DNA of 64,000 bases, taken from positions 30,613 through 94,612 of the forward strand of contig CAIRMR010000189.1 of assembly GCA_903879715.1 (NCBI GenBank), in the 5' to 3' direction. Positions within the stretch are counted from its first letter, which is position 1; the number at the start of each line of letters is the position of its first letter. This document shows positions 1,638 to 51,807 of the stretch, in pieces. Origin of the DNA: an uncultured Bacteroidales bacterium. GTDB taxonomy: Bacteria > Bacteroidota > Bacteroidia > Bacteroidales > UBA4417. The notes beneath the pieces are model-generated. The model saw only the letters and a program-made list of their open reading frames with translations. It made no database searches and was not told where the DNA came from. The translations under genes and the position numbers were made by a program.

Positions 1638-2825
1638 TTATTCTTTCAACTCTTTTTCAATAAGCTTTAAAGTCAATTCCAGTCCATTTGAATCTTTAAG
1701 CTTTTGCGAAATTCCGATTGCATTTTTCTTGTATTTATCATTGGAAACACATTCATTAATTGCTAATGAAAGCGCTTCTGCAGACAGCTTTTTAAAATCA
1801 CACGCATTGGGTCCCAAACCCAGTTTAACTATCTGTTTGCGATTCTCAAACTGATCCGCCATAAACGGAAACGCAACCTGTGGAATTCCGGCTCTTGCTG
1901 CCAATGCCATGGTACCTGTTCCGCCATGATAAACTATTGCCGCCAAACGTGGAAAAAGCAATTCAAAAGGCATTTCATCCACATATAATACATCCGCTGT
2001 ATTATTCTCAGGCAATTCAGCCCAGCCTTTAGAAACTATCAAACGTTGATTTGTAGTTTTTGCCAGATCGCTGAAAATCTGGTTGTATTTTTCGGGACGC
2101 GCAACCGGATTACTGCCAAACCCAATAAACACAGGAGGGTTTCCCGAATCAAGAAATTTTTCAACGTTCTCAGGTAATCCATTTTGTGAAGGAAGTATCA
2201 TATACCCGGTTTGGGTATACTTAAATGAAACGCCTTCACGAGCCGCATTTAACTCTTTATCACAGGCAACAATTACGTTGTCGCCCATCCAGTCTGCCCA
2301 AACATCTTTGATGGGCTGTAATCCAAGATTGGACCGCTTTTTATTGAGAAAGCTTTTCATCACCATATTTGTCATGGATTTTCCAAACCCAAACAGTAAA
2401 CGGTTTAGAAAAGGATCAGTATGGCTTGTCCCTAATAGTACCGGATAAAAAACGACAAACCGGTAAGGAACTTTTAAAATATCTGCAACTGTGTGAACGC
2501 CTAAAACAAATCCTACACCTAATACCAGATCGGAGCCTTTCAGTAATTCAGGCAGTAAATTGATTTGGGTTTCGGTCTCTTTTTTCATTTCTGCAGGAGA
2601 CGGTGATTTGGTTGCACCACCTTTCATTTGGGCGTTTTGCTTAAATAACTCCTTGTAATTTGGACCAAATGCCACAAATGGAATACTGTACCGATTTACA
2701 AGCTCTTCATTTTCGGGAGGCGCACAACAAACTATTTCGTGTCCATTTCTAACTAATCCTGTTGCCAGGGCAAGCATGGGTTGTACATCTCCCCTTGTAC
2801 CGTTTACTACTATTGCAATTTTCAT
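1638..2825 (-). CDS. GT1-family UDP-glycosyltransferase (MGT/sterol-flavonoid glycosyltransferase-like)
   Basis: N-terminus MKIAIVVNGTRGDVQPMLALATGL. C-terminal nucleotide-sugar motif YHGGTGTMALAARAGIPQVAFPFMADQFENRKQI is typical of GT1 (GT-B) UGTs. Confidence 0.85.
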   Translation of the reverse strand: MKIAIVVNGTRGDVQPMLALATGLVRNGHEIVCCAPPENEELVNRYSIPFVAFGPNYKELFKQNAQMKGGATKSPSPAEMKKETETQINLLPELLKGSDLVLGVGFVLGVHTVADILKVPYRFVVFYPVLLGTSHTDPFLNRLLFGFGKSMTNMVMKSFLNKKRSNLGLQPIKDVWADWMGDNVIVACDKELNAAREGVSFKYTQTGYMILPSQNGLPENVEKFLDSGNPPVFIGFGSNPVARPEKYNQIFSDLAKTTNQRLIVSKGWAELPENNTADVLYVDEMPFELLFPRLAAIVYHGGTGTMALAARAGIPQVAFPFMADQFENRKQIVKLGLGPNACDFKKLSAEALSLAINECVSNDKYKKNAIGISQKLKDSNGLELTLKLIEKELKE

Positions 2826-3127: not shown

Positions 3128-4162
3128 TCACTGAGCCAAGGAGGGAAATACGCATGAAAAAATCAGGACTGCCAATCCGGCTGCCAGCCAAACAAAAGTA
3201 GCTCTCTTGCTGCCAACCCATTCTTTCAGAATGATTCCCCAAACGTTACTGAAAAGGATATTCAGCGACATCAGTATACTCCACGAAAAGGCCATCATGA
3301 TGCTGCCTTCAACAAAGAAACTCTTGCCTAAAGCCAAACCAAAAAACTGTGAATACCACAGAACCCCGGCCAAAGCACAAAACAACAGGTTGTTAACCAA
3401 TACTGAGCCTGGAACCGAGATGTATTCCTTAATTGTTTTATTTTTAATATTCTGAAAGATGCAGTAGGTAGCATTGGTAATAAAGCCTCCAACAGTTACC
3501 ATCAAAATAACCGGCAGACCGGCAAATAAAGCTTGGGTTCCCAATGAAAGAACGGTTTCTTTAATAGGTTCACCAGCGCTTAATCCAAGGCTGAAGCAAG
3601 CGCTCATTACACCAGCAAGGAGTGCAACCAACAAACCTTTTCCCAAAGCAAAATCTTTGATTGCTGCCTTTTGTTGTTCGGCTGTCATATTTTTGGAGCG
3701 CAAACTCCCTGCATAACCAATTATTGCAATTCCGGCTATTGCAATACAGACACCGATCAATAATATCAGTCCTTTACCTGTAAACAGGTCAGTTCCCATT
3801 AGCATGGCCGGAATTAATGTTCCGAAAGCCGAACAGGTTCCCAACGCTATCGACTGTCCGAGTGCAACACCCAGGTAGCGCATACTCAAACCGAAAGTCA
3901 GGCCACCAACGCCCCATAACATACCATATCCTAAGGCTTTAAGGGAGGCACCACTGCCACTGGAAAGAATAAGGCTTAATGAAGAACTTTCGGGAACTGC
4001 TAATAATGCTCCCAGATAGGGGAATACCAGCCAGGCAAAGATACCTTGTGTAAGCCAGAAACTTTCCCACGACCAATTTTTAACTTTTTTGATTGGAACG
4101 TAAGAACTGGATTGTCCCATGCTGCCAAATGCAATGATAATGATTCCTATAATTGTATTCAT
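3128..4162 (-). CDS. rhaT: L-rhamnose/proton symporter
   Basis: 344 aa, the same length as E. coli RhaT. It is polytopic and carries the motif YVPIKKVKNWSWESFWL (E. coli: YAPFKKVKKWSWETMW). Confidence 0.9.
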   Translation of the reverse strand: MNTIIGIIIIAFGSMGQSSSYVPIKKVKNWSWESFWLTQGIFAWLVFPYLGALLAVPESSSLSLILSSGSGASLKALGYGMLWGVGGLTFGLSMRYLGVALGQSIALGTCSAFGTLIPAMLMGTDLFTGKGLILLIGVCIAIAGIAIIGYAGSLRSKNMTAEQQKAAIKDFALGKGLLVALLAGVMSACFSLGLSAGEPIKETVLSLGTQALFAGLPVILMVTVGGFITNATYCIFQNIKNKTIKEYISVPGSVLVNNLLFCALAGVLWYSQFFGLALGKSFFVEGSIMMAFSWSILMSLNILFSNVWGIILKEWVGSKRATFVWLAAGLAVLIFSCVFPSLAQ

Positions 4163-4416: not shown

Positions 4417-5673
4417 CTACCGTTTGCTTGTCACAGCTTTTTCATATGCCTCAATTTCAGCAATATAATCAACTCCTACTGCAACATTATTTTTCAAACA
4501 GAAATAGTCGAATACATCATTCCATGGTAAACCTTTAGCTTCTTCGAGCAAAGCAAGTCGCTGGAAATACTGTTCATTGGCTTCATACTCTCTCAGTTTT
4601 TCAATAGGCTCAAGCAATGCCTGCAGGAATGCTTTCTGCGTGGCACGGGCTCCGATTACATAAGCACCTATGCGGTTGATGGAAGCATCAAAATAGTCTA
4701 ATCCGATATTTACCCTGGTAAGTGCGTTTGCCCGGGTAATTTCCTGTGCCAGCATAGTTACGCTTTCGTTCAGGATCACCACATGATCACTATCCCAACG
4801 GACAGGACGGCTAACGTGCAACAACAATTCGGGAAGATAGAGAAGGAAGGAAGATATCTTATCAAATATCTCTTCTGTTGGGTGGAAATGGCCAAGGTCT
4901 AAGGTTGCCATAATTTGATTTTGTATGGCATAACCCATATAAAATTCGTGAGAACCTGCTGTGAAACTTTCAAGTCCGGTTCCAAACAATTTACATTCTA
5001 CTCCGTCTTTAACATTTGCGAATTTCTGTGCAAATATTTTATCCAGTGAATCTTTGAGAAGAGAACGATACAACAAACGATCAACAGTTAAATCTTTTTG
5101 CCCGTCGTGTACCCAAAGGTTGTGGCAGGCTTTGCTTCCCTGCTGACTTCCCATTGCATCGGCAATGCGACGGCTACGGATAGTATGCTCAATCCAGAAA
5201 TCACGAATGCCTTTATCCCGATGCGATAAGGATTGATCCCCGCTTTTTGGATGTGAAAAACTGCTGCTGTTGAAATCTAGCTTCATGTTAACACCTTTGG
5301 CCCAATCAATCCAGCTTTGGAAATGCTCCGGCTCAATCTGGTCACGATCTACTTTTTTGCCGCCAAAATCGCCGTAAATAGCGTGTAAACTTAAACGATG
5401 ATCGCCGCCTAATAAGGTTTTTACTTTTTCAACATCTTTGCGAACTTCTTCTATGTTGCGTGCCTTGCCGGGATAGTTTCCGGTTGCCTGTATTCCACCG
5501 CTGAGTGATCCGCCTGAATTTTCGAATCCTGTTACATCATCCGTTTGCCAACAATGGAGCGACAACGAGATATTTTGCAATTGTTCTAACGCTTTGTCTG
5601 CATCTACACCCAAAGCGGCGTATCTTTCTTTTGCTACCTGATAGTTAAGACCTATCTGAACATCATTTTTCAT
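4417..5673 (-). CDS. rhaA: L-rhamnose isomerase
   Basis: 418 aa, collinear with E. coli RhaA: SLHCWQTDDVTGFE, GGIQATGNYPGKARN, LDLGHFHPTE, LLLHVSRPVRWDSDHVV, GLDYFDASINRI. Confidence 0.95.
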   Translation of the reverse strand: MKNDVQIGLNYQVAKERYAALGVDADKALEQLQNISLSLHCWQTDDVTGFENSGGSLSGGIQATGNYPGKARNIEEVRKDVEKVKTLLGGDHRLSLHAIYGDFGGKKVDRDQIEPEHFQSWIDWAKGVNMKLDFNSSSFSHPKSGDQSLSHRDKGIRDFWIEHTIRSRRIADAMGSQQGSKACHNLWVHDGQKDLTVDRLLYRSLLKDSLDKIFAQKFANVKDGVECKLFGTGLESFTAGSHEFYMGYAIQNQIMATLDLGHFHPTEEIFDKISSFLLYLPELLLHVSRPVRWDSDHVVILNESVTMLAQEITRANALTRVNIGLDYFDASINRIGAYVIGARATQKAFLQALLEPIEKLREYEANEQYFQRLALLEEAKGLPWNDVFDYFCLKNNVAVGVDYIAEIEAYEKAVTSKR

Positions 5674-5735: not shown

Positions 5736-7034
5736 TTACTTTAAAAACACTTTCCTTAATTCTTCAACTTGATTATCATTAATGGGAACCATTTCACCTA
5801 GTGATGCGCCAATAACCAATGATTTGGCACTAAATTCGGCAACTTCGAGCCGGTCGAATGTTTGCAGAAGCTGGTTCCCTGTAATAAGTACCGAATCGTT
5901 CTGAATAATTACGGCAGGATTAGTACCTGAAATTATTTGAGCGATTTCATTGTTTTCTTTAAAAAGACTGGTGAAATTTAGCGAAGGCACATCCTGTAAA
6001 AAGATCCAGCTTTCGGGGATGGTACGTACATTGAAATGGGTTTTGGTCACGCTAAAAGCCATCAGGTAGGGCGATTGCGTCATGATAATTGAATTTACAT
6101 CCGGGTTGCGTTTGTAAATTTCCTGGTGAAGCCAAGCGGCGCGGCTGGGTATTTTACCAGGTTCTCGTTCACCGTTTTTTACCTGCACAATATCACCGAT
6201 TTCCAAATCCCATCGGGGTACATCGGTCGGCGTTATCAGAAAATCATTGTTTCTCCATCGCATCGATACTGTACCGTACGAACTGATCATCAGGCCCTGT
6301 TCACAAGCTCGCTTGACGATTTTACATATTTCAGCACGTTTCTCGCATTCGTCGGATGGATAATCAACCTGATCCATTTCCGGTAGGACGGCAGGCACCT
6401 GGGCATCAAATTCACCGATTTGCTCATCAGTTAAATATTCAGGTTTGCCAATACCAGAGCCAAATAATATGGCCCTTGCACAAAATTCCAGAGTCTCAAA
6501 ACGTTGAAAAACATCAGCCATATCACTTCCGCCAACCACCGTTCCGTGGTTTTCCATAATAATGGCTTTGAATCCTTTCTCGAATTCTTTGGCAATTACT
6601 TTACCAAGGGCGTTGCTTCCTGGAAGTTCATAATCGGCATATCCGATTGTTCCACAGACATGCCTGGCCTGCGAAATCACATTGGTATCGGGTATCTTGC
6701 GCACAATGCTGAACGAAACCAATGCCGGAGGATGTGCATGAATAATGGCTTTTAAATCGGGACGTATGTCATAAATAGCTCTGTGAAAAGGGTATTCAGA
6801 CGAAGGTTTATGCTTCCCGACGATGGTGCCGTCGCGTTTCACGCAAACAATATCCGAAGGCCTTAACGAACCTTTGTCAATAGCTGAGGGAGTGACCCAC
6901 ATATCACCATTCTCTTCAATAATTGACACATTTCCGCCTGTTGTGGTTGTCATTCCACGCTTATATATCCTGCTGATGATCAACGTGATCTGATCACGCG
7001 GATGCATTAATTTAGTGTTCAGTTTCTCGTTCAT
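5736..7034 (-). CDS. tandem class II aldolase/adducin-domain protein (intact FucA/RhaD-like N-domain plus a degenerate C-domain)
   Basis: The N-domain has GGNVS, PSSEYPFH, IHAHPP and ENHG, which are the Glu and three Zn-His positions of FucA-type aldolases. The C-domain aligns but reads YGTVS, IPSRAAWLH, IIMTQSP and IQNDSV, so all four positions are replaced. Confidence 0.8.
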   Translation of the reverse strand: MNEKLNTKLMHPRDQITLIISRIYKRGMTTTTGGNVSIIEENGDMWVTPSAIDKGSLRPSDIVCVKRDGTIVGKHKPSSEYPFHRAIYDIRPDLKAIIHAHPPALVSFSIVRKIPDTNVISQARHVCGTIGYADYELPGSNALGKVIAKEFEKGFKAIIMENHGTVVGGSDMADVFQRFETLEFCARAILFGSGIGKPEYLTDEQIGEFDAQVPAVLPEMDQVDYPSDECEKRAEICKIVKRACEQGLMISSYGTVSMRWRNNDFLITPTDVPRWDLEIGDIVQVKNGEREPGKIPSRAAWLHQEIYKRNPDVNSIIMTQSPYLMAFSVTKTHFNVRTIPESWIFLQDVPSLNFTSLFKENNEIAQIISGTNPAVIIQNDSVLITGNQLLQTFDRLEVAEFSAKSLVIGASLGEMVPINDNQVEELRKVFLK

Positions 7035-7070: not shown

Positions 7071-7592
7071 CTAAAATAGTAGAATCAGAACGGTAAATAA
7101 AATTCCTGCGCCTGCCAATATCAATCCACGTTTATGAGTTTTGCTACCAGGTTTAAACATCCAAAGTGATGAAATTGCCATAAATAGGAGTAGAGCACCA
7201 AAAACCAGGTTGAACCAATGCGTTGCCTTTAAGCTGATAGCCTTGTGAAAATCAGTGAGTTTATTGAAAGGGAACATAAGTTCTTTGACTGTAACCACAG
7301 CAGCGCCTGAGGTTTGATTGTAATAACCGTTTTCAAAAGACACTATTTCACCTTCGGTTTTAGTGATTTTTATTTCGCGCATCCTAAGTTCCTTGGCAAG
7401 GTCTTCAACTGCCAGGCCGGGTTTCAACTGCTTCTCCATAGTGACTTGTTTCTGCATAAAATCGGTGTTCCTGTACATAAGCAGTATCCCGCTTAAAGCG
7501 TAAACCACTACCAGCCCAAAAACAAAAAAGCCAATGTCGCGGTGCCAAATCCGTATATACTGGATCAATGATTTACTCTTCTTCTCTTCCAT
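7071..7592 (-). CDS. small membrane protein, PepSY-associated-TM-like
   Basis: 173 aa with an N-terminal WHRDIGFFVFGLVVVYALSG helix and two C-terminal TM helices. No catalytic motif. Confidence 0.4.
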   Translation of the reverse strand: MEEKKSKSLIQYIRIWHRDIGFFVFGLVVVYALSGILLMYRNTDFMQKQVTMEKQLKPGLAVEDLAKELRMREIKITKTEGEIVSFENGYYNQTSGAAVVTVKELMFPFNKLTDFHKAISLKATHWFNLVFGALLLFMAISSLWMFKPGSKTHKRGLILAGAGILFTVLILLF

Positions 7593-21359: not shown

Positions 21360-24200
21360 TTAAAATCTGAAAGTTGCCGTCAGGTAGTACGACCTGGCAG
21401 GAATCATAACGGTAGAATATTTAGTGTCGTTTGCAACTGCCTCTTCATACATTTCCTTGGTAAAACCTTGCCTGTCAAGAGCCTGTAAGAAAGTACCCGG
21501 ACGGCTCCAGCTCATTACACCATAGGTATTGAAAATGTTGTTCATCACAAAGCTTAACTGGAATTTCTTTGTAAATTCATAACCTGTACTCAGATTGAAC
21601 TGGCTGAATGATGGCAGCAGGAAAGCATTGGCAACATTGGCCTGGCGTTTGCCCATAAATGCCCAGGTGATCTGCGCGTAGAATTTATCGCCATTGTAAG
21701 AAGGGGTAATGTTGATTATGCTTCTGGCCATGTTATCGGTTTCATTTCCTGAATAAGATGCAATTGAATCATCCTCTGGTCCAAATCCATTCATCAACCA
21801 GGTGTTAAAATCAGTGGCAATTCCTTTTTGCAGAGTTAGCACACCACGTATATTGAAATGCTTTGCCAGATTATAATCAGCCTCTATTTCCAATCCCATT
21901 GTTGTGTATTTGTTGTATAGTATAGGGAGACTGTATTGCGTCTGATCTTGGTTAGTTCCGGCTTGTATATTGGCTACATTGCTTAGCACACTGTAAAAAG
22001 GAGTAACAAAAAGGCCAAGTTTGTCACCTTTAAATTTTACTCCCAGTTCAAACTGATCCACTTTTTGAGCGATAGGATCTAAGGTTTCAACTAAGAAATC
22101 AGTGGTAGCGTTGAAGTATAAATCCAGATCAGGCGCCTTATTTCCTTCTGAGAAACGGCCATAGATTGCAAACTTTTCGCTAAATGTATAATTGGCGCCC
22201 GCTGAGAACGAGAACGTGGAAACCTTTTTATCATAATGGAATGTGTTTGGAGTAAGACCATATACGTTGTCAAATAGTGTATTTGGATCCTTATCCAAAC
22301 CGCCATCTGTAGAAGTGGCAGTTGTAGTAGGTGAGTTATTCCCTGTAGGATGCATATTTTCCCAACGTACTCCCCAGTCGAAGTTGAGGGCTTTGCTTAT
22401 CTGCCAGTTGTGGCCAAAGAAAAGAGCTAACTGGCTTTGAATTGCGTCATTAGGGGCAACCGCTCCTGTAATTGCCATAACACCACTACCATTGGTAGCA
22501 TGTTTTATTGCTCCGCTGGGATCTGTAATTGTTATTCCAACTATTTCAGGCTTGTCCTGGATAGTACCTACCATTGCTCCGCCACCTCCGAATGCCATTT
22601 TACGATTGATTACTGAATGACCATAAAAGCCGCCAAATGTAAAGCTCATATTATTGAGTTTCTTATTCAGGGAGAACTGCTCAAGAAATTCCTTTGCATG
22701 GTTTTCACTGTAGGCGAGAGGTTCGAAAAAGAGGGAATTCGGCATCACTTCACTGCCTGGTAGAGTACTGCTATTCACATGAAAATCAAAACCGCTGAAA
22801 GAAGTAACATTCAACAATTCCTTGCCTGAAGTAAGACCACGGAATGAATAAGTGCCGGGATTGCCAAGCATTCCCAGGATTGCATAGGAAACCAGGTCGG
22901 TCATATCAAGCGGATACACCACAGCCTGGGTATTCCACCTGGCACCTTTATCAGAATAACGCATTGCATTGGTAAAAGTCCAGTCCTTGCCAAAATGCTG
23001 TGTCCAGTTAAATCCCACCGTCTTGTCTATAGAGTGGATCAAGTCCCTATTGTTGTATGTTAAAGCATCTCCGGTTTGATTAACCGGGAAAGTCTGCTGT
23101 GTTGAAGGCGCAAGAACTGAGGAATAATTCGTGAATCCTTCAACAGGTACTGGATCGGTAAAACTTGCGGTTGGCGTAAATTCGAACCAACCGTTGCGAT
23201 CGTTCAGATACTTTGCGTAGAATTTTAAATTACCTGTTTTGTATTTCTTAACCACGTTGGCTTTAACCTGTGCCCCGTTGTTCATAGGATAACTACTTGT
23301 AGGGTGCTGCCCCTCATCATACCTGTAAAATCCACCGAAATCATAGTACCAGCCTTTACCTAAAGGGCCGCCTACATTGAAATCGGTACGGAAAAAATTA
23401 CTATGTCCGTTTGCTTGCAAACCATATTTGGTACTGACTTCGCCTGCTACCTGATCACCTCCTTCTTTCATGATATAGTTAAAGATGCCTCCGGGAGCAT
23501 TGGCGCCCAGGATGGATGCAGTACCGCCACGAACTGCCTCTAACCTGCCAACAGTAGCATCGGAACGAAGAAAATAATCGGGGCCATAATTATTGTAAGT
23601 TGCATTGGTAACCGGCAAGCCGTCTTCCTGCATGGATACATAATAATATCCGGAAGCTCCATCATTCGATCCAACGGATACGCCTCGTGAATACACCGTG
23701 TTACGGATTTCACCTAAAGATGAGTTTACATACACACCAGGAACATTTTTCAAAAGATCCGCGGCGCTGTTTGAGGCTAAGCGTTCCAGTTTCTTGGTGT
23801 TAATAGCTGTAATAGCTACTGACGATTCCATTCGGGTCCGTTTGTCGAATACTCCGGTTACCACATATTGGTCAAGCGTAACCGCGTTCTCAAGTAAAGT
23901 AATGCTCAAACCTGTTAACTGAGGTACACTTACTTTCACCTCCTGGGGATCATAACCAACAAAAGAAACCTGAAGCACATAAGAGCCATTGGCTACTTTA
24001 TCGATAGTGAATTCACCGTCTATATTGGTGACCGTACCTGTTGTGGTTCCTTTAATCAATACTGTTGCACCCGGAAGTGAGGCATCATTAGCTCCGAAGA
24101 TTTTACCTGAAATTGTTGCATTCTGGGCAAAAAGAGATAAACTAAAAACCGTCAGCAAGATTGCTAAACAGGTTCGAATTTGCGGTAATTTGTTTTTCAT
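21360..24200 (-). CDS. TonB-dependent outer-membrane receptor with CarboxypepD_reg N-terminal domain (no adjacent SusD)
   Basis: The track ORF begins at a TTG (24263). The likely true start is the ATG at 24200 (MKNKLPQIRTCLAILL..signal). It has a Carboxypeptidase-regulatory-like domain (ISGKIF..GATVLIKGT..DGEF), a plug and a barrel, and a C-terminal ...TATFRF with terminal Phe. Confidence 0.9.
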   Translation of the reverse strand: MKNKLPQIRTCLAILLTVFSLSLFAQNATISGKIFGANDASLPGATVLIKGTTTGTVTNIDGEFTIDKVANGSYVLQVSFVGYDPQEVKVSVPQLTGLSITLLENAVTLDQYVVTGVFDKRTRMESSVAITAINTKKLERLASNSAADLLKNVPGVYVNSSLGEIRNTVYSRGVSVGSNDGASGYYYVSMQEDGLPVTNATYNNYGPDYFLRSDATVGRLEAVRGGTASILGANAPGGIFNYIMKEGGDQVAGEVSTKYGLQANGHSNFFRTDFNVGGPLGKGWYYDFGGFYRYDEGQHPTSSYPMNNGAQVKANVVKKYKTGNLKFYAKYLNDRNGWFEFTPTASFTDPVPVEGFTNYSSVLAPSTQQTFPVNQTGDALTYNNRDLIHSIDKTVGFNWTQHFGKDWTFTNAMRYSDKGARWNTQAVVYPLDMTDLVSYAILGMLGNPGTYSFRGLTSGKELLNVTSFSGFDFHVNSSTLPGSEVMPNSLFFEPLAYSENHAKEFLEQFSLNKKLNNMSFTFGGFYGHSVINRKMAFGGGGAMVGTIQDKPEIVGITITDPSGAIKHATNGSGVMAITGAVAPNDAIQSQLALFFGHNWQISKALNFDWGVRWENMHPTGNNSPTTTATSTDGGLDKDPNTLFDNVYGLTPNTFHYDKKVSTFSFSAGANYTFSEKFAIYGRFSEGNKAPDLDLYFNATTDFLVETLDPIAQKVDQFELGVKFKGDKLGLFVTPFYSVLSNVANIQAGTNQDQTQYSLPILYNKYTTMGLEIEADYNLAKHFNIRGVLTLQKGIATDFNTWLMNGFGPEDDSIASYSGNETDNMARSIINITPSYNGDKFYAQITWAFMGKRQANVANAFLLPSFSQFNLSTGYEFTKKFQLSFVMNNIFNTYGVMSWSRPGTFLQALDRQGFTKEMYEEAVANDTKYSTVMIPARSYYLTATFRF

Positions 24201-24268
24201 CTGTTTGATTGGGGTTAAGGTTTGTAACATTGGTTTAATATTACAAATATCACATCCAAACAACCAGA

Positions 24269-24635: not shown

Positions 24636-26915
24636 CTATAAGCTGAAAGTATAAACGTATTTCAATATTATATTCTGATTATTAAATGCCGGTAAACGAG
24701 GATCCTCTATATCCCTGTATGTGTTTCTTCCTTCATTGATAACTATATAGAAATCATTTCCTTCGCGTGGATTATACCTGAATCTGAAGTTTGTCATCAC
24801 CATGTTTTCTGTAGTATTATACTGAATAAATGTACTGATTGAAGTTTTGGTGGTGAACATAACCAGTGCTTTAAAACCGGCAATACCGCCGCTGAAGGAT
24901 TGGTTCCTGCTACTAAACTTCAGGAAGTTTTGTTCATACTGTAAACCCAGTTGCAAACTTGATCCAATATTCAATGAAGGTTTAATTTTAAACGAAAACC
25001 GGTTGCCGTCGTAAAAAGTACCGGCAAACAAATCAACTCCCATAACAAATTTGTTCGACATGGGTGAGTTAAGGTGAGTTTCAACCTGGTTAAATGAATA
25101 TTTCCCTGTTGGCACTTCACAATCTTTTGAAAAACTAAACGTATCTATAACATTTTCAAAAATATTCTTTAAAATAAATACTCCGCCAAATCCAGATTTA
25201 AAATCCAGATTATACGAAAGTTCAGTTTCAACAGATTGTGCCGAATTGCTAATGTTATCCGTATATGCCATTGAACTGAAACGGATTCCATGGTTCATAA
25301 TGCCTGATTCTTCACCCGGAATCCAGCCGTAACCAAATCCGGCATAATAAAGTGTGTAGTTATTGCGTGCCTGGAATCCGACTTTCGGATCAAAATCCTT
25401 ACCGCTCCTGGTCCAATTGAAATTATAATTCACTCCCTTCTGGGTGTACCTGTCCCAGCTTATATATAACTTGGACGGATCGAGGGAAACCATATTATTT
25501 TCAAAATGATTATCTATCACCTGCGAAAGTTTAACATTTAAGTAATCATTTTCAGCAACTTTAAATATCCCGTCTATTCCATACGCTGTATTGTATGAGC
25601 CATCTGTCCCGATTCTTGTTGTTACAATCCCGCCTACATAACTGCTTTCATTAATTACCTGCCGTCTCAGCCTTAACAATCCGAAATTTTCAGATGCCAG
25701 TTTCCCCACAGAAGTATCTGCCACATCAAATGACTGTGTCTGCAGATCAAGCATACCAATATCCCATTTGCCCGCCATGCCAGTTATTTTTGCTCCGGCT
25801 AAAATCGGGACTCTTTCGCCTCCGTTCAGGCCTATCTGACGGCTATAGAAAAGGCTGCTCCCGGGCTCAAAGTCAAATTTTAATGAACTGGAACGCTCCT
25901 GGAAAAAAGTTCTTTTTTCAGGGAAAAACAATGAAAACCGGGTAAGATTAATCTGTTCATCATCCGCTTCAACCTGTGCAAAATCTGTATTAATAGTCAG
26001 ATCCAAAGTTAAATTATTGGTGAGCCCGTATTTCAGATCAAGTCCTGCATTCAGTTTTGGCGTATTTACTGTTTCGTAAGCGGTTCCGGTTTCGTCCTTT
26101 ATGCTATTGCGTTGATATCCGCTAAATACATATGGAGCAATGTAAAATGGTTTACTGGATTTAATTCCTTCGAATATCACTTCCTGAGATTTCGAAGGCC
26201 GGAAAACACTCGACATACCCCAGTCGGGCGGAATGGCAGGAAAAACATCCACTTCGTTTTTGTGAGCGAGCATCCGGACACAAGTCAGTCCCATCACTAT
26301 AAGCCCATCATTTTCCTTAAAACGCATACTCGAAACCGGGATGCGGAATTCGGCAAACCACCCCTGATCATTTCTTGTGGTTTTTACATCCCAGAAAGTA
26401 TTCCAGCTTGTACTCAATGGATTTTCCCCAAAAGGGATATCCATTCCTATTGCATCCTTGGAAATGGTAAAGTCTGTTCTTAAACCTGTAGGAGTAGTTA
26501 TAAATCCAAGTCCGTTTTCTTTGTCGTTAAACGAATCAAAAATCAGCATCAGGCTCTCACTCAATACGTCCATCTCATCTCTTTTTTTTGATGAAACCAG
26601 CATGTCCGAAGGATTTGAATCAAATAACCTGGCACCGACATATACGTAAGTATTATCGTAGCATATCATTACCTCGCTTTTTTCGGTAGGCTGATTTCCA
26701 AAAGTAGGGGTATGCATGATCATTTCGAGCGGCTTTAACGATTGCCAGCAGGCATCATCCACAACACCATCGAAACTAAATTCACCTTGTATTTTTGGTA
26801 TAACGTAGCTGTTCTGATTATATGCAGAATAAGCGCAAAGCGTAAATATTGCAATCATTACAATCTTAAGAAGGAATGTCCTTGACGGAAACAGATTCAA
26901 AATTGATTTCTTCAT
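24636..26915 (-). CDS. CBM9-like/DOMON plus DUF5916-type outer-membrane barrel protein
   Basis: 759 aa with a signal peptide. The N-terminal segment IPKIQGEFSFDGVVDDACWQSLKPLEM..VYVGARLFD is typical of CBM9_like_3. The remainder has beta-strand-rich alternating patterns and ends ...YVYTFSL. Confidence 0.6.
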   Translation of the reverse strand: MKKSILNLFPSRTFLLKIVMIAIFTLCAYSAYNQNSYVIPKIQGEFSFDGVVDDACWQSLKPLEMIMHTPTFGNQPTEKSEVMICYDNTYVYVGARLFDSNPSDMLVSSKKRDEMDVLSESLMLIFDSFNDKENGLGFITTPTGLRTDFTISKDAIGMDIPFGENPLSTSWNTFWDVKTTRNDQGWFAEFRIPVSSMRFKENDGLIVMGLTCVRMLAHKNEVDVFPAIPPDWGMSSVFRPSKSQEVIFEGIKSSKPFYIAPYVFSGYQRNSIKDETGTAYETVNTPKLNAGLDLKYGLTNNLTLDLTINTDFAQVEADDEQINLTRFSLFFPEKRTFFQERSSSLKFDFEPGSSLFYSRQIGLNGGERVPILAGAKITGMAGKWDIGMLDLQTQSFDVADTSVGKLASENFGLLRLRRQVINESSYVGGIVTTRIGTDGSYNTAYGIDGIFKVAENDYLNVKLSQVIDNHFENNMVSLDPSKLYISWDRYTQKGVNYNFNWTRSGKDFDPKVGFQARNNYTLYYAGFGYGWIPGEESGIMNHGIRFSSMAYTDNISNSAQSVETELSYNLDFKSGFGGVFILKNIFENVIDTFSFSKDCEVPTGKYSFNQVETHLNSPMSNKFVMGVDLFAGTFYDGNRFSFKIKPSLNIGSSLQLGLQYEQNFLKFSSRNQSFSGGIAGFKALVMFTTKTSISTFIQYNTTENMVMTNFRFRYNPREGNDFYIVINEGRNTYRDIEDPRLPAFNNQNIILKYVYTFSL

Positions 26916-27153: not shown

Positions 27154-28053
27154 TCAGTACAATTCCAGGAATTCTTTGGGTGTATACCCGGTCTGGCTCT
27201 TAAAAAAACGGGAAAAATTGCTAGGGCTTTGGTTTCGCAATTTAATAGCAACCTCGGCAATCTGCATATTCGAATATTTTAAAAGTGTTTTTGCCTCCAG
27301 GATAAACATTTCATTGAGTAGTTCCTGGGCAGTCATATTTATACTGCTGATTACACATTTATTTAAATAGTTTGATGAGATATTTAATAGGTGAGCATAT
27401 TCGGTAATGGTTTGTTTTTCGTAGATAAATTTTACCAGTGCATTTTTGTATTGTTCCGTTATTTGAAAAGAAGCATTTTTTGCCTTTACCGGTTGTGTGG
27501 TCAGGTCCTTCTTTACTTCTTCAAAAAGCGTTAAGAGATAAGTGGCAAAAAAGTTTTTCTCTATTCCTTCGTTTTCATAAACCATAAACAACCTCTCCTG
27601 TATTGCTTCAATGTTTTTCCTTGCAGAATCGGAAATAGAAATTACAGGATTTGCCTGGAACTGAAAAAACGGGTAATTTTCACCCAGAAAGTTCTTCGGT
27701 AGGAAATGAAATAATGTTTCATCAAAATGACAAAAAAAGCCTTCTGTATCGCTGCTCATTATTTCATATTCAGTAATCTGGTAGGCAGGAAGAAAAAACA
27801 TCGAAGATTCACCAAACTCATAATGTGTCAGTCCTTTACTCCTTTTATTAGATCCTTTTTTAATATACAAAAAATCAAAAAGTGGTTTGCGGTGCGGGGG
27901 CAAGGGTGATTTCAATATATAGTTTTCTAATCGGTTAATATGGAAATATTCAAGCTTGATATTGGAAGTGAATTTTTCCCAATCCAGTGATTTTGAATAA
28001 AAACTTGTGAATTCGGAAAATTTCAGGAGTGGAACTTTTTCTTTCTTTTCCAT
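27154..28053 (-). CDS. AraC-family transcriptional regulator (paralog A)
   Basis: The C-terminal double HTH reads YAHLLNISSNYLNKCV ... IAEVAIKLRNQSPSNFSRFFKSQTGYTPKEF. Roughly 70-90% aa identity (by eye) to 28285..29193. Confidence 0.9.
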   Translation of the reverse strand: MEKKEKVPLLKFSEFTSFYSKSLDWEKFTSNIKLEYFHINRLENYILKSPLPPHRKPLFDFLYIKKGSNKRSKGLTHYEFGESSMFFLPAYQITEYEIMSSDTEGFFCHFDETLFHFLPKNFLGENYPFFQFQANPVISISDSARKNIEAIQERLFMVYENEGIEKNFFATYLLTLFEEVKKDLTTQPVKAKNASFQITEQYKNALVKFIYEKQTITEYAHLLNISSNYLNKCVISSINMTAQELLNEMFILEAKTLLKYSNMQIAEVAIKLRNQSPSNFSRFFKSQTGYTPKEFLELY

Positions 28054-28284: not shown

Positions 28285-29193
28285 TCAATACATCTCAAGG
28301 TATTCTTTGGGAGTAATACCTGTCTGGCTTTTGAAAAAGCGGCAAAAATTACTTGGAGATTGGTTGCGTAATTTAACTGCCACCTCTGCAATTTGCATAT
28401 CTGTATATTTTAAAAGTGTTTTTGCCTCAAGGATAAGCATTTCATTAAGTAGATCCTGGGCAGTTTTATTAATGCTGCTGATTACACATTTATTCAGATA
28501 GTTTGATGAAATATTCAATAAGTGGGCATATTCAGCAATGGTTTGTTTTTCATAAATATGTTTTACCAGGGCATTTTTATAAGACTCTGTTATCTGAAAA
28601 GAAGCAGTTTTTGCCTTTTTGGGTTGAGTTGGCAATTCATTCCTCACCTCTTCAAAAAGCGCTAAAAGATAAGACGCAATAAGTTTTTTCTGCATTTCTT
28701 CACCTTCTTCGTAAATTGACAACAGTCTCTCAAAGATGGCCTCCACATTCTCGGAAGCAAAATTGGTAAGATGAATTACAGGATTTGATTCAAATTTGAA
28801 AAATGCATAATTATCACCCAGGTAGTTCTTAGGCAGAAACTCAAATAGCTTTTCATCAAAATGGCAAAAAAATCCAATAGTATCGCTACTCATCATTTCA
28901 TGCTGGGAAATCTGGAAAGCCGGTAAAAAAAACATGGAGGATTTCCCAAACTCATACATGGTAAGCCCTTTAATCCTCTTTGAATACCCGGTCTTTATAT
29001 ATATGATATCAAAGAGAGGCTTGCGATGCGGTGGTAATGGGAAGCTCATTTTTCCTACAACCGTTTCTAAACGGTTAATATGAAACAGAGGATGTTTGTT
29101 AACGGAAATAATAGTTTGCAAATCAAACGTACTTGAATGGAATCCTAACATTTCTGAAGGTTGCAGGACTGGTATTTTTTCTTGCTTTTCCAT
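28285..29193 (-). CDS. AraC-family transcriptional regulator (paralog B)
   Basis: Same architecture as paralog A. HTH: YAHLLNISSNYLNKCV ... IAEVAVKLRNQSPSNFCRFFKSQTGITPKEY. Confidence 0.9.
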   Translation of the reverse strand: MEKQEKIPVLQPSEMLGFHSSTFDLQTIISVNKHPLFHINRLETVVGKMSFPLPPHRKPLFDIIYIKTGYSKRIKGLTMYEFGKSSMFFLPAFQISQHEMMSSDTIGFFCHFDEKLFEFLPKNYLGDNYAFFKFESNPVIHLTNFASENVEAIFERLLSIYEEGEEMQKKLIASYLLALFEEVRNELPTQPKKAKTASFQITESYKNALVKHIYEKQTIAEYAHLLNISSNYLNKCVISSINKTAQDLLNEMLILEAKTLLKYTDMQIAEVAVKLRNQSPSNFCRFFKSQTGITPKEYLEMY

Positions 29194-33065: not shown

Positions 33066-34703
33066 TTAGATGCCTTTAGGTTGTAGTTTATCCCCAATTT
33101 TCACAGCCTTTTCAATCACATCCAGTCTCGCTTTCCTTGGATCAGGTTTACCGACTGGTTTACCATCGGGTTGTATATCAAGGATCTCATTTGTTTTTGG
33201 GCTGTAAATGGGCCATTCCGGAAGATTTTTACCATTAGGATTGCCTGTTCTGGCGAAGTTTGCCCAATAGGCATTCAACATCCTGGCCAACTCTTTGTCT
33301 TCGGGCGTTGGAGGGGGTGGAGGCGGCCCGAAGCCACCGATCCCGAGGTTATCGAACACAAATGAAATATCGGTTCCGTGTCCGGGGCCATACTTCATCC
33401 ACTGTTTCATGGCAACAGGTACATATGAGAACAGAAAAATGTAGGCCGGTTCGCCAACAGCTGCAAAAGAACTTGCTGTGAACCGTGAAGGCTCTGCCCA
33501 TATTTTATCCGTGTTAAATTTTGTTTGTATCTCAGCGAATTCTTTGTCTCCATCCGGATCATAGGCAGCTTTAGCCTCATCTTTGAGTTCCCCGAATAGT
33601 GAAAACAGTTCTTCTTTCGAATTACTGGCGTTTACAAATCCTCCACCTATTTCTGCGCTGTTATTCCCGATCATGAGTGGAACATGCGCCTGCCTGCCTG
33701 CCTTGTACGCACTTTCGGAAGTTTCAACGACCAGTTTCCCGTCGAGTATCGGGCCCGAATAGATTCGCGCACCTCCCTGTCCATCATTTTCCTGTCCACC
33801 GTCCACAATATCTTCAACTTTAAGGGCTCGAAGTTTGGCCAGCGCGGCCGCGTCTGTACCCTCAATCCCATGTTTACGGGCAAAGTTTACTCCAACCGTT
33901 TCTGCTGAAACAGGGTAATAAGTGCTTGCATTTTCTTTACTGATCGGTCTGCCGGTCAAAACGCCATCCCGTCCACCGCCGGAATGACTGATCGCTTTAT
34001 GAAACAATCCCTTTGCAGCCGGAATCGTCAGAAGTGAATGTACTGAAACGCCACCGGCAGAGAAACCGAAAATGGTCACATTTTTTGGATCACCACCAAA
34101 CGCGGCGATGTTCTGTTGTACCCAGTGGAGAGCAGCGATCTGGTCCATAAATGCGTAGCTACCCTTTGGTTCTTCCGGATGCTCGGCACTCAAAGCAGGG
34201 AATGCGAAATGTCCGAGTCGCCCCAAGCGGTAATTTAAGGTAACAAGAATAACGCCTTTTTTGGGAAACTGACCTTCGACACCAGGCCCGGAGCCACTAC
34301 CCCCTACGAATGCACCACCGTGGATCCAAACCATAACAGGTAACTTTGCTTTGGGTTTGGTTTCGGCAGGTAGCCATAAATTAAGATACAGGCAATCTTC
34401 GGATGAACCTTCAGATATTGTACCGGGAGCAGCACCCCATCCAGCCTGGGCACAATTTGGGCCAAACTTGCTTGCGTCTCGTTCTCCCTGCCATGCGGCA
34501 ACGGGTTGTGGAGGACGCCAGCGAAACTCACCTACAGGCGGAGCAGCATAAGGGATTCCCTTGAAGCTTTCAACACCGCCTTCAGAAACACCACGTACAA
34601 CTCCTGAGGCGGTTCGAACTTCCGGAGAAGTATTGACATTTGTTTGCTGCCCATGCAAACTGAGACTGATAAGGAGGGCTAAACCTGTTACTATTTTTTT
34701 CAT
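33066..34703 (-). CDS. type B carboxylesterase (para-nitrobenzyl-esterase-like), secreted
   Basis: [16 protein letters not shown], nucleophile motif GFSAGG, 545 aa with a signal peptide. Confidence 0.9.
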
Positions 34704-34724
34704 CTGGCTGGTTTGTTTTTGCTT

Positions 34725-35921
34725 TTATTGTTTGGGAGGTGCTTCAACACCTGAGAAATCAAGGATCATTTTTGGCAGACGCTCTCCTTTAACCTGGATC
34801 TTAACTAACTCTGAATTAAAACCATTTAATTCATCAGCAGTAAACCGTACTGCATCAGAGCCAGTGTTTTCAAACATATGTGCCATTTGTGTTGTACCCG
34901 GAATGGGTACAATCCAGGGTTTTTGTGCAAGTAACCAGGCCAGGGAAATTTGAGCGGGAGTTGCTTCTTTTTGGGAAGCCCACTTTTTTAACAAATCTAA
35001 CATTGCCAGGTTGTCGGGTAAATTCTCCGGCGAAAAGCGTGTCTCCATGCCTCGGATATCGCCTTGGGCAAAACGTGTATATGCGTCAATGGCGCCCGTA
35101 AGGAAACCAACTCCAATGGGACTCCAGGGAACGAATCCAATACCGAGTTCTTCGCAAAGAGGAATAATGTCTTTATCTGAGCCATGATACAATAAGGAAT
35201 GTTCATTTTGAATGGCTGTAACCGGATGCACCTTATGCGCCCGACGAACCGTTTGCGGACCTGGTTCTGAAAGTCCATAGTGCAAAACTTTTCCTTCCTT
35301 AATGAGGTCTTTAATAGTTCCCACTACATCTTCAATTGGCACCTGGGGATCAACACGATGTTGGTACAACAAATCAATACGGTCGGTACGAAGACGTTTC
35401 AACATGTTTTCCACTACAATCCTGATATGTTCCGGTTTGCTGTTTAATCCCGGTAAGCGTTGGCCGGTTTCCTGGTCAAGATTCCAGCCAAACTTTGTGG
35501 CTACAACCACTTTATCCCGAAAAGGCTCAATGCCTTCACCTAATATTTTTTCTACCTCAAAAGGACCGTATGCCTCAGCCGAATCAAAAAACGTTACACC
35601 ATTATCAAAAGCCGTGCGTATAATTTTGTGCATTTCGGAACGCAAAGGGATAGTCGTTTGGTAGGTTCGGCTCATATTCTGAACTCCAAGCCCAATGCTT
35701 GAAACTTCAAGCTTACCGAGTTTCCGGCGTCCGGGGGAAGTAGCTGGCGAATCATTTGTGGCGTTTTGTTCAGGTGAAATAGCATTACCATCTTGTGCCA
35801 TAAGTAATTGTGCTCCTGTAGCCGTAGCAACTAACGCTCCTCCGGCAACTGTAAATCCTACTTTCAAAAAATTACGCCGGTTAAAGCCTGTATCCACTTT
35901 CTTATTTATCGAATCTTTCAT
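34725..35921 (-). CDS. aldo/keto reductase with twin-arginine (Tat) signal
   Basis: N-terminal FNRRNFLKVGFTVAGGALVA..A matches the S/T-R-R-x-F-L-K Tat consensus. AKR core: FFDSAEAYGPFE, LYQHRVD, HYGLSE. Confidence 0.85.
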   Translation of the reverse strand: MKDSINKKVDTGFNRRNFLKVGFTVAGGALVATATGAQLLMAQDGNAISPEQNATNDSPATSPGRRKLGKLEVSSIGLGVQNMSRTYQTTIPLRSEMHKIIRTAFDNGVTFFDSAEAYGPFEVEKILGEGIEPFRDKVVVATKFGWNLDQETGQRLPGLNSKPEHIRIVVENMLKRLRTDRIDLLYQHRVDPQVPIEDVVGTIKDLIKEGKVLHYGLSEPGPQTVRRAHKVHPVTAIQNEHSLLYHGSDKDIIPLCEELGIGFVPWSPIGVGFLTGAIDAYTRFAQGDIRGMETRFSPENLPDNLAMLDLLKKWASQKEATPAQISLAWLLAQKPWIVPIPGTTQMAHMFENTGSDAVRFTADELNGFNSELVKIQVKGERLPKMILDFSGVEAPPKQ

Positions 35922-35942
35922 TTTGACTGTTTTAAATATTTA

Positions 35943-36416
35943 TTAGTGACCACCAGGAGTAAGCAGTTTTGAAAAAGACAATGATCCCAGTTTCCATTCA
36001 CCGTTTTGCTTTACATACACTTCGGTAACCATAAAAGGATTAGTAACTTCGTTTCCGCCAACCACGGCCAGCAAATCAATTCTGTTTAAAAGAATTGCCG
36101 TATTATCAATAATGTTTACTGTTACATCATGGATATCAGCTTTCTTGTACCAGATTCCTCCACTTTTAATGATGTTGATTTCCTGTTCTTTTCCCCATGA
36201 TCCGCCCATATGGACAAACATGGATTTTTCATGGAAGAGATTATTCAAGACATCTATATTTTTGTCCGACATCCATTGCCATTTATCTTTTGAAAGAGTA
36301 ATGATTTCCTGCTCGGCAGCGGTGAAGGTTTTGTTAGTCGGATTTAAACCAGCTTGTCCAAAGGACAATTGAGCACTAGCGATTATTAAAAATAAACCGA
36401 GAATTATTGCCTTCAT
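35943..36416 (-). CDS. secreted NTF2-like (DUF4440/SnoaL-like) protein
   Basis: 157 aa with a signal peptide. The cone-fold pattern ..WQWMSDKNIDVLNNLFHEKSMFVH..VTEVYVKQNGEWKL is present. Confidence 0.55.
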   Translation of the reverse strand: MKAIILGLFLIIASAQLSFGQAGLNPTNKTFTAAEQEIITLSKDKWQWMSDKNIDVLNNLFHEKSMFVHMGGSWGKEQEINIIKSGGIWYKKADIHDVTVNIIDNTAILLNRIDLLAVVGGNEVTNPFMVTEVYVKQNGEWKLGSLSFSKLLTPGGH

Positions 36417-36471
36417 AGTTTTAAGTATTAATTGGTTTTACAATTGAGATATTTTTTGTTGATTCAGGCAA

Positions 36472-38383
<1,912 letters not shown>

Positions 38384-38400
38384 TTTAAACTGTTTGACTA

Positions 38401-39489: not shown

Positions 39490-39512
39490 TTTCACCTTGT
39501 TTTTTTATACCA

Positions 39513-39520
39513 CAAAGGTA
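39513..39520 (-). promoter_or_regulatory. candidate -7 box TACCTTTG for the 39489-33066 hydrolase/AKR operon
   Basis: Plus-strand caaaggta lies 24 nt upstream of the ATG at 39489 and matches TAnnTTTG exactly. Confidence 0.45.
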
Positions 39521-39617
39521 GATGCAAACTATAAAGACATTGGTAGACAGATTACTGTATCTTCTACCATTTTTACTGATTTGACTTTTTGCGTGCAGGC
39601 AACTGTATTAGAATGCT

Positions 39618-39625
39618 TAATTTTG
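39618..39625 (+). promoter_or_regulatory. candidate -7 box TAATTTTG for the AraC gene at 39648
   Basis: Exact TAnnTTTG match 23 nt upstream of the ATG, divergent from the box at 39513. Confidence 0.45.
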
Positions 39626-39647
39626 TATCAGAAAAACAAAAGCAGAA

Positions 39648-40559: not shown

Positions 40560-40695
40560 CTATAATTCTTTTTGTTTTATCATGTGGTAAAGCAGTTCAA
40601 ATTGAAAAATAATTACAGTGTATTATCACCAACATTTTATAACACATATAACAAGCAGCAGCCGTCATCATGTGTTAACTAGAAACAGATGATAA

Positions 40696-41571: not shown

Positions 41572-41574
41572 TTC

Positions 41575-41601
41575 AAACGTCCTCATTTGAGGACGTTTTT
41601 T
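41575..41601 (+). terminator. rho-independent terminator
   Basis: aaacgtcctca-tt-tgaggacgtttttt sits immediately after the stop at 41571. It has a GC-containing stem followed by a T-run. Confidence 0.75.
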
Positions 41602-41664
41602 GTTATAAGTAATTTGTTTCTTTTATTTTGGTAGTATGTTTCCTTCGGCTACTTCGCCTGATTT

Positions 41665-41672
41665 TACCTTTG
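41665..41672 (+). promoter_or_regulatory. candidate -7 box TACCTTTG for the AKR-mdaB pair
   Basis: Exact TAnnTTTG match 26 nt upstream of the ATG at 41698. Confidence 0.45.
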
Positions 41673-41685
41673 CACCATAATTTAA

Positions 41686-42816
<1,131 letters not shown>

Positions 42817-42847
42817 ATAATTTGATCAAACATTGAATATCATAGAA

Positions 42848-49945: not shown

Positions 49946-50073
49946 TTTCCCGGATTTTATTTTACAGATTTGAATTATATTTCTATTTGTGGATGCTTAT
50001 TTTCAAGTAATAACCGTTAACAGAATGCATCGGTGAGTATTGATAAGATTCTATTATCGGGCATTAAAAGGGA

Positions 50074-51030: not shown

Positions 51031-51078
51031 AAAACCGGGATTAATTTCAAGAAGGTTTGAATTAGGTTGTTTCTGTTT

Positions 51079-51744: not shown

Positions 51745-51807
51745 AGTTTTTAAATTTATTAGTCAATGAGTTAAAAAAAATCAAATTTGAGATTCAATCG
51801 TTGAGCT

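Follow-up and report, generated by a model that had tools for sequence, protein, structure and literature searches.

The class II aldolase homotetramer is a C4 ring with its active sites between adjacent subunits, and RhaD of Escherichia coli is one such single-domain homotetramer of about 274 amino acids (aa). The active site of FucA occupies a cleft between a subunit and its neighbour, whose Tyr113' joins Glu73 in catalysis (PMC11841055). The reference reconstruction of rhamnose pathways includes only RhaD and RhaE(W) as aldolases (PMC3870299), RhaEW (YuxG) being a bifunctional rhamnulose-1-phosphate aldolase/lactaldehyde dehydrogenase (Rodionova et al. 2013, PMC3870299). Here we analyse a tandem class II aldolase encoded at 5736-7034 of a 64,000-nucleotide stretch of contig CAIRMR010000189.1 from an uncultured Bacteroidales bacterium (the window). 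We put a probability of roughly 60% on the reading that this protein is a FucA-type metal aldolase dependent on dihydroxyacetone phosphate (DHAP), most probably acting on L-rhamnulose-1-phosphate, with an interface site that would be split between its two duplicated domains.

FucA is built from four identical subunits, whereas the tandem protein carries two non-equivalent domains in one chain. Its cis half-site (the metal, Glu and phosphate positions) and its trans half-site (the elements that FucA donates to its neighbour) appear to lie on separate domains, and its genomic context is rhamnose, not fucose. RhaD belongs to the same superfamily, takes the same slot in rhaT/rhaM/rhaA/rhaB-type operons and would share the reaction we propose, but is not orthologous to the tandem protein (NF002963, 56.1 bits against a cut-off of 170, matching domain 1 only). 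YgbL/OtnC (6VOP/6VOQ, labelled YgbL) and the Bacillus thuringiensis aldolase 6BTD/6BTG are among the nearest single-domain relatives of domain 1 with a structure or a curated model; the B. thuringiensis enzyme belongs to the 5-deoxyribose salvage pathway, and OtnC is a 3-oxo-tetronate-4-phosphate decarboxylase. Unlike the tandem protein these are single-domain enzymes, and no otn or 5-deoxyribose salvage genes lie near the tandem gene. RhaEW differs in that its second domain is a short-chain dehydrogenase/reductase (SDR) and Asp replaces the catalytic Glu, whereas the second domain of the tandem protein is PF00596; the tandem protein has no adh_short match, and TIGR02632 is not among the 25 listed of its 30 NCBIfam matches. 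PMC12599920 describes the adducin head domain as a class II aldolase fold without catalytic residues that acts as an oligomerisation or interaction module. All adducin subunits are dead and have no enzymatic partner, whereas here a dead domain is covalently paired with an apparently live one. Adducin chains do occur among the weak matches of the tandem protein, with marginal similarity (14 bits).

The gene is a single unbroken open reading frame on the minus strand, with its ATG at 7034 and its stop codon at 5736-5738. The original prediction of a 432-aa protein with two FucA/RhaD-like domains, which gave no strand, is borne out by two full PF00596 matches, and all the motifs it quoted are in place. 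The protein divides as follows, in the true numbering of the 432-aa chain:

5736-7034, minus strand: whole gene, 432-aa tandem class II aldolase, from the open reading frame list and translation
6399-7034, minus strand: domain 1, residues 1-212, an intact FucA-type domain (PF00596, 160.7 bits)
6351-6398, minus strand: inter-domain linker, residues 213-228, coil and poorly conserved
5739-6350, minus strand: domain 2, residues 229-432 (PF00596, 82 bits, whole profile)

Pfam detects two PF00596 (Aldolase_II) stretches with 238 bits overall. Scored per half, the profile yields 160.7 bits for residues 1-214 and 82 bits for residues 224-432 (gathering score 22.2), and each half spans profile positions of about 2-181 of 183, that is, a complete domain. 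Aligned with each other, the two domains are 27% identical (E 8e-25, 84 bits). An AlphaFold2 monomer model, with a predicted local distance difference test score of 92.2 and a predicted template modelling score (pTM) of 0.91, repeats the order of secondary structure in 11-210 and 226-429, and DSSP places the linker as coil between helices 202-210 and 226-244 (model numbering, which is the true number minus 1). Foldseek matched the model to FucA, YgbL and AraD at target template modelling scores of 0.7-0.85 over ~200 columns each, with FucA at about 0.8. This confident model, a check that the original prediction had proposed, indicates that the class II aldolase fold occurs twice in the chain, and its pTM of 0.91 suggests a fixed inter-domain arrangement.

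Residues were mapped by profile alignment onto E. coli FucA, using the sequence of PDB 1FUA. Domain 1 contains these matching elements:

6930-6938, minus strand: G33-G34-N35, phosphate-binding loop of domain 1, equivalent to FucA G28/N29
6795-6806, minus strand: P77-S78-S79-E80, phosphate serines and catalytic Glu of domain 1, equivalent to FucA S71, S72 and E73
6732-6740, minus strand: H99-A100-H101, two metal His of domain 1, equivalent to FucA H92 and H94
6543-6551, minus strand: N162-H163-G164, third metal His of domain 1, equivalent to FucA H155

Domain 1 keeps all 11 of the FucA positions for catalysis, zinc and phosphate, including the equivalents of G28/N29, the T43 region, S71/S72, E73 and H92/H94/H155. 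Through its motifs GGN33-35, PSSE77-80, HAH99-101 and NHG162-164, the domain has the residues expected of a competent FucA-type enzyme (H99, H101, H163, E80, G34-N35 and S78-S79). The Glu of PSSE and the three Zn-binding His that the original prediction saw there correspond to FucA E73, H92/H94 and H155, and Glu73 takes part in FucA catalysis (PMC11841055). We followed these positions in a deep family alignment of the query and 134 full-length representatives, one per 50%-identity cluster (n = 135). E80 is present in 135/135 sequences and H99, H101 and H163 in 133/135 each, and 132/135 have the whole E-H-H-H pattern. The G-G-N phosphate loop is retained in 132-133/135 (G34 and N35 in 132/135 each). 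Both domains share the FucA fold, with hhalign probabilities to FucA of 99.9% for domain 1 and 99.3% for domain 2. The best PDB sequence matches of domain 1 are FucA (4c24/4c25), the B. thuringiensis aldolase 6btd and YgbL (6voq).

The corresponding elements of domain 2 are degenerate, with residue counts given for the same 135 sequences:

6138-6149, minus strand: P296-S297-R298-A299, counterpart of PSSE with Glu replaced by Ala (position 299: Ala 23, Ser 22, Leu 16, Tyr 11 and others)
6075-6083, minus strand: M318-T319-Q320, counterpart of H-A-H (position 318: Thr 30, Ile 25, Val 13, Phe 11; position 320: Gln 41, Ala 17, His 10)
5892-5900, minus strand: N379-D380-S381, counterpart of N-H-G (position 380: Asp 39, Glu 15, Gly 11, Asn 10)

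Together with SYGT252-255, the motifs PSRA296-299, MTQ318-320 and NDS379-381 fall at the same FucA positions as the motifs of domain 1. With M318, Q320, D380, A299, T255 and R298 at those positions, domain 2 lacks the residues for FucA-type competence. Its four catalytic positions occur in 131 distinct combinations among the 135 sequences, and its phosphate-binding positions are as variable as its metal and Glu positions. Since the same four positions are unconstrained across the family, the loss is ancient and universal, and the claim that domain 2 has no catalytic residues (PSRA, MTQ, NDS) extends from this protein to the family. The unconstrained positions equally argue against a conserved alternative site in the canonical pocket, and on this ground we rejected the idea that domain 2 conserves another site for a metal or ligand. 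Two members (P0179 and P0260, 2/135) have A-H-H-D at the four catalytic positions of domain 2, a potential 2-His-1-carboxylate set that could reflect chance or a lineage with a metal-binding domain 2.

Loss of the cis site has not been followed by decay, and the constraint on domain 2 comes close to that on domain 1. Close orthologues match the query at a median of 77.4% identity in domain 1, 73.9% in domain 2 and 60% in the linker, with 90/199, 74/200 and 1/20 invariant columns, respectively; mean top-residue frequency in the linker is 0.22 in the deep family. Domain 2 scores 84 bits against its own domain 1 but <=37.7 bits against every solved aldolase, which fits an internal duplication. 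Most of its residues conserved in the deep family match conserved residues of domain 1 (R242=R22, S257=S37, H303=H84, Y307=Y88, P340=P115, E397=E180), and these shared residues are fold determinants. E341 and R259 are specific to domain 2, and each is kept in >=90% of the deep family.

Two elements of domain 2 correspond to parts of FucA that reach the neighbouring subunit:

6006-6020, minus strand: I339-P340-E341-S342-W343, a loop specific to domain 2 and homologous to the FucA I108-P109-A-I-H112(-Y113) loop
5745-5747, minus strand: F430, conserved C-terminal aromatic of domain 2, aligned exactly with FucA F206 in the C-terminal tail

Domain 2 thus keeps a homologue of the Tyr113' loop and an equivalent of F206. 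The loop aligns by hhalign with FucA R106-I115, the stretch containing Tyr113. E341 is conserved in 133 and S342 in 101 of the 135 sequences, and residue 343 is aromatic in 120 (Tyr 81, Trp 25, Phe 14); the domain-1 equivalents are Asp (71), Thr (51) and a variable residue, with no aromatic. Position 430 is Phe in 89 and Tyr in 14 sequences (103/114 without a gap), and its domain-1 counterpart F209 is aromatic in 35/135. Structure-directed mutagenesis of FucA by Joerger and colleagues in 2000 reportedly addressed the role of the C-terminal tail (F206, Y209). FucA mutants of that series at Y113, F131 and Y209 are found among the PDB matches listed, which include no F206 entry.

Mean top-residue frequency at the 11 cis positions is 0.85 in domain 1 and 0.30 in domain 2, and at the five trans positions it is 0.33 and 0.68, set against background means of 0.54 and 0.44. 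Permutation p values for this reciprocal cis/trans conservation are 5e-5, 0.014, 0.035 and 0.012, the trans part of the test being post hoc because its five positions were picked after the loop had been seen. In the family alignment, conservation is shown to be reciprocal, with cis elements held in domain 1 and trans elements in domain 2. Because domain 2 keeps the loop and F430 that FucA donates to its neighbour, both of which domain 1 has lost, it does not look like a generic scaffold but like a trans-partner that domain 1 requires. The covalent active/dead pair of class II aldolase domains in the original prediction is genuine, with 'dead' narrowed to the cis half (metal, Glu and phosphate loop) while the trans elements persist. 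Of the roles it had offered for domain 2, scaffold is refined to trans-partner, and a regulatory or substrate-binding module at the canonical site is unlikely because the phosphate positions there are variable.

These patterns suggest a model in which one aldolase domain was duplicated and fused, and the halves then divided the interface active site between them. Domain 1 would be the cis half, contributing the three metal His, Glu80 as acid/base and the phosphate loop. Domain 2 would be the trans half, contributing the Tyr113'-type loop with Glu341 and the aromatic residue 343, plus Phe430 in the place of Phe206'. The functional unit would be the interface of domain 1 (cis) with domain 2 (trans), and the reciprocal interface of domain 2 (cis) with domain 1 (trans) would be catalytically dead. 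Two tandem chains could then pair into a pseudo-tetramer, a FucA-like ring of four domains with two active sites instead of four. With Trp or Phe at residue 343 in about 29% of members, proton transfer by a Tyr there is not open to the whole family; Glu341 may take over from Tyr113' as the base. We infer the interface geometry, the oligomeric state and any catalytic role of Glu341 from sequence conservation.

Evidence for the substrate comes from gene order, which in the window involves three further genes:

4417-5673, minus strand: L-rhamnose isomerase RhaA of the E. coli type (PF06134, 570.7 bits; NF002203, 636 bits, above the cut-off)
3128-4162, minus strand: L-rhamnose/proton symporter RhaT (NF010022, 419.9 bits, cut-off 369)
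55233-56654, minus strand: FGGY-family kinase, ~48 kb from the tandem aldolase

The rhaA gene starts 62 bp downstream of the tandem aldolase on the same strand and rhaT comes next, as expected from the rhaD position beside rhaA-rhaT that had been assigned to the gene. No kinase adjoins the tandem aldolase in the window. The window FGGY kinase has rhamnulokinase models as its best NCBIfam matches, far below their cut-offs, and is 54-68% identical to kinases lying directly upstream of the tandem aldolase at eight loci in other genomes (L005, L006, L011, L039, L067, L072, L075 and L076); it is likely, by sequence, an orthologue of these operon (rhamnulo)kinases. A non-phosphorylated substrate, which the missing adjacent kinase might imply, was rejected given the retained phosphate loop of domain 1 and the orthologous FGGY kinase at 55.2-56.7 kb.

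We extended this comparison with a neighbourhood census of 80 loci, inspecting ~9 kb on each side; these are the best 80 of >=596 species genomes and are biased to Bacteroidota relatives at >=70% identity. In 49/80 loci, the gene directly upstream on the same strand encodes an FGGY kinase. Type I loci (33/80, Flavobacteriaceae) have a regulator on the opposite strand followed by rhaEW-rhaI-kinase-tandem gene, with lldD (18 loci), aldA (17), lutABC (14) and a transporter downstream. The enzymes AldA, LldD and LutABC are exactly those that dispose of free lactaldehyde and lactate. Type II loci (17/80, Marinilabiliales-like, with an E. coli-type rhaA) typically have an opposing araC followed by rhaT-rhaM-rhaA-kinase-(fucO)-tandem gene, the kinase being directly upstream in 11/17. 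Neither RhaD nor RhaEW occurs within ~9 kb on each side in 17/17 of them. In these operons, rhamnose isomerase, kinase, mutarotase and transporter are typically present and the tandem protein is the only aldolase seen nearby, so the rhaD slot proposed for this gene extends to Marinilabiliales-type genomes. Type III loci, from Sphingobacteriia, Chitinophagia and Cytophagia, have a tandem gene-fucO pair after pta-ackA (L013, L028) or adhE (L017, L040), with no rhamnose genes within 9 kb. The recurrent rhamnose isomerase, mutarotase, transporter and kinase, combined with partners for lactaldehyde and lactate disposal, point to an L-rhamnulose-1-phosphate aldolase. From gene context, the reaction is most probably the cleavage of L-rhamnulose-1-phosphate to DHAP and free L-lactaldehyde.

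Several points weigh against this reading. The tandem protein falls below the curated cut-offs of all equivalog models (FucA, RhaD, OtnC, AraD and MtnB), so gene context is what carries the substrate assignment. In Flavobacteriaceae, RhaEW, a validated rhamnulose-1-phosphate aldolase, sits in the same operon, and the tandem aldolase is therefore not the sole candidate there. In Bacillota, the contexts of the tandem gene are not rhamnose-specific. The conserved domain-2 aromatic aligns by hhalign to FucA H112, one residue off Y113; a residue-exact match to Tyr113 was not established, as hmmalign misplaced the loop and hhalign gives H112. The post hoc choice of trans positions counts on the same side, and we found no enzymatic, genetic or structural data for any member in the PDB, NCBIfam or the literature.

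The shared operon of RhaEW and the tandem aldolase was observed at L001, L002 and 31 further loci (for example, L007-L010 and L018-L021). Their co-occurrence in 33/80 loci means that they are distinct genes, not variants of one another, and could reflect redundancy, use under different conditions or a different substrate.

A different substrate is the first alternative to consider: domain 1 would be active on L-fuculose-1-phosphate, L-xylulose-1-phosphate or a 5-/6-deoxy-ketose-1-phosphate, or would carry out 4-epimerisation, decarboxylation or dehydration. The highest NCBIfam scores are for OtnC (NF043034, 171.6 bits summed over two stretches, below the cut-off of 250), FucA (NF005302, 150.7 against 264; NF040649, 146.1 against 250; TIGR01086 gives 105.8 against 400.25) and an L-ribulose-5-phosphate 4-epimerase subfamily (148.9), whereas RhaD reaches only 56 bits. 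The closest PDB matches (FucA, the 6btd/6btg aldolase and YgbL) agree with this ranking. RhaEW is already present in the 33 Flavobacteriaceae loci, rhamnose genes are lacking in the Bacillota contexts, and in Sphingobacteriia, Chitinophagia and Cytophagia the gene is paired with fucO beside pta-ackA or adhE, not rha genes. Against these observations, no fucI, fucK, fucP, fucU or otn was found among the annotated recurrent neighbour clusters of the 80 loci, a census that used no fuc probes and left many rarer clusters unannotated; the partners found are rhaA/rhaI, rhaM, rhaT and a kinase. The tandem protein is also the only aldolase seen beside rhamnose isomerase in 17 loci, and the FucO-type reductase, AldA-type dehydrogenase and LldD/LutABC downstream fit an aldolase that produces lactaldehyde. 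Another reaction fits poorly with the invariance of Glu80, which matches the aldolase acid/base Glu73 of FucA. On balance, we regard another substrate or reaction as unlikely, and the tandem family probably represents an unrecognised third type of rhamnulose-1-phosphate aldolase.

A more detailed version of the L-rhamnulose-1-phosphate assignment is tentative. The protein may be a single-chain heterodimer in which Glu341, the neighbouring aromatic and the C-terminal Phe act in trans, with Glu341 replacing Tyr113' as the base at the C4 hydroxyl and with an asymmetric aldehyde pocket able to evolve independently. It would then add a third, so far unrecognised type of L-rhamnulose-1-phosphate aldolase, orthologous to neither RhaD nor RhaE, in use throughout Bacteroidota and in parts of Bacillota.

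Domain 2 might instead have acquired a new function, such as binding an allosteric ligand, docking the kinase, FucO or RhaEW, or catalysis via different residues. Its strong purifying selection and its near-invariant, domain-specific E341 and R259 would suit such a role, and the adducin head offers a precedent (PMC12599920) for a non-catalytic class II aldolase domain serving as a protein-interaction module. The 2/135 members with A-H-H-D could in principle bind metal. However, the metal, Glu and phosphate positions of domain 2 are unconstrained, and most of its conserved residues are fold determinants shared with domain 1. Because its domain-specific conserved residues fall in exactly the two FucA trans elements, a new function is disfavoured, and we hold it to be improbable. 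The alternative that the fusion is an artefact (an assembly error, or a missed stop or frameshift) or that domain 2 is a functionless, decaying relic is refuted by the unbroken reading frame, by identical or near-identical proteins in NCBI, JGI, ENA and Logan assemblies, by occurrence in >=596 species genomes with end-to-end alignment down to 32% identity, and by a domain 2 that is nearly as conserved as domain 1 where the linker is not.

The composite aldolase reading concerns a widespread family. A word-indexed protein search returned 6614 relatives; the best 120, drawn from NCBI, JGI, ENA and Logan assemblies, are ~422-470 aa long, with 98-100% query coverage and 72-100% identity, and identical or near-identical full-length proteins occur in all four sources. 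When 50%-identity representatives were searched exhaustively, 423 clusters matched at E<=1e-30, and nearly all of the best 150 are full-length tandems of 400-470 aa that align end to end down to 32% identity. The tandem architecture is encoded by >=596 species-representative genomes from several Bacteroidota orders, and the best 80 of these belong to Flavobacteriaceae, Marinilabiliales/Prolixibacteraceae, Sphingobacteriaceae, Chitinophagaceae and Hymenobacteraceae. Full-length relatives at 70-81% identity occur in many genomes. A profile search added ~50%-identical members in Bacillota (Caldicoprobacter, Thermoclostridium, Anaerobacterium, Paenibacillus and Oscillospiraceae) and in Spirochaetota. 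The survey of the fusion that had been called for yields a broad distribution, and the full-length homologues in >=596 species genomes rule out the assembly artefact that the original prediction had named as a possible refutation.

Databases label these proteins 'class II aldolase/adducin family protein', 'L-fuculose-phosphate aldolase' or 'methylthioribulose-1-phosphate dehydratase'. Every PDB match is limited to one of the two domains, and literature on tandem or pseudoenzyme class II aldolases, on Pedobacter and Echinicola fitness and on ulvan- or rhamnose-using Flavobacteria yielded nothing on the tandem family. The family is large, uncharacterised and generically or wrongly annotated, and thousands of proteins carry such labels. 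If true, the assignment accounts for how many Bacteroidota that degrade rhamnosides of plants and algae carry out the aldolase step of rhamnose catabolism. Active/inactive tandem duplicates are familiar in enzyme evolution and the chemistry is probably ordinary; the cis/trans specialisation seen here is unusually clean. A homo-oligomeric interface site would have been resolved into cis- and trans-specialist domains, with the reciprocal loss visible from sequence alone, and the family lends itself to asking why selection favours half-of-sites pseudo-oligomers. DHAP aldolases of this fold serve stereoselective C-C bond formation in biocatalysis, and an aldehyde-side pocket on a separate domain would allow engineering that spares the metal site.

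One further gene adjoins the tandem aldolase in the window:

7071-7592, minus strand: 173-aa membrane protein, 36 bp upstream of the tandem aldolase, with weak PepSY_TM-like matches

This protein belongs to no NCBIfam family, and no homologue adjoins the tandem aldolase in the 80 other loci. Promoter and terminator motifs scanned around the tandem gene were no more numerous than in shuffled sequence. Directly downstream of rhaT lies a GT1-family glycosyltransferase (1638-2825, minus strand), odd in a catabolic rhamnose locus, which scores highest, though far short of each cut-off, against models of rifamycin- and macrolide-inactivating glycosyltransferases.

The tandem aldolase sits in a cluster of glycoside hydrolase (GH) family GH78/GH106 rhamnosidases, with a GH1 gene upstream on the minus strand. 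The region 7695-29193 encodes GH1, a CBM48-esterase, a 1221-aa GH78, GH3, a 1124-aa GH106 and an esterase, enzymes of rhamnoside and glucoside degradation. It also includes a TonB-dependent receptor (21360-24263) with no SusD-like partner seen beside it, a DUF5916 protein (24636-26915) and tandem AraC regulators (27154-28053 and 28285-29193). These hydrolase, esterase, receptor and regulator genes are, like the tandem aldolase, on the minus strand, upstream of it. This content suggests plant rhamnoglucosides, flavonoid rutinosides or similar, as the substrate of the cluster. Further along, 33066-43447 holds three aldo/keto reductases, a carboxylesterase, two alpha/beta hydrolases, a DUF4440/SnoaL protein, a flavodoxin-like protein and two AraC regulators, and may be a cluster for processing aglycones or xenobiotics.

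The FGGY kinase of the window belongs to a second sugar-phosphate cluster (48989-58669, mostly on the minus strand), whose combination of aldolase-SDR, PHP protein and kinase looks unusual. It comprises two transaldolases (48989-49945 and 50074-51030), a fructose-6-phosphate aldolase (51079-51744) and a 663-aa fusion of a class II aldolase with an SDR (51808-53799) that is ~25% identical to RhaEW and below all curated cut-offs. A 426-aa PHP-domain protein of no NCBIfam family (53873-55153) precedes the kinase at 55233-56654, and an AraC regulator (56749-57618, plus strand) and a zinc-dependent alcohol dehydrogenase (57632-58669) follow. Beyond this cluster, 58808-62651 on the minus strand encodes an 822-aa protein in which the E1 alpha and beta subunits of a 2-oxo-acid dehydrogenase are fused, downstream of a 430-aa E2 acyltransferase.

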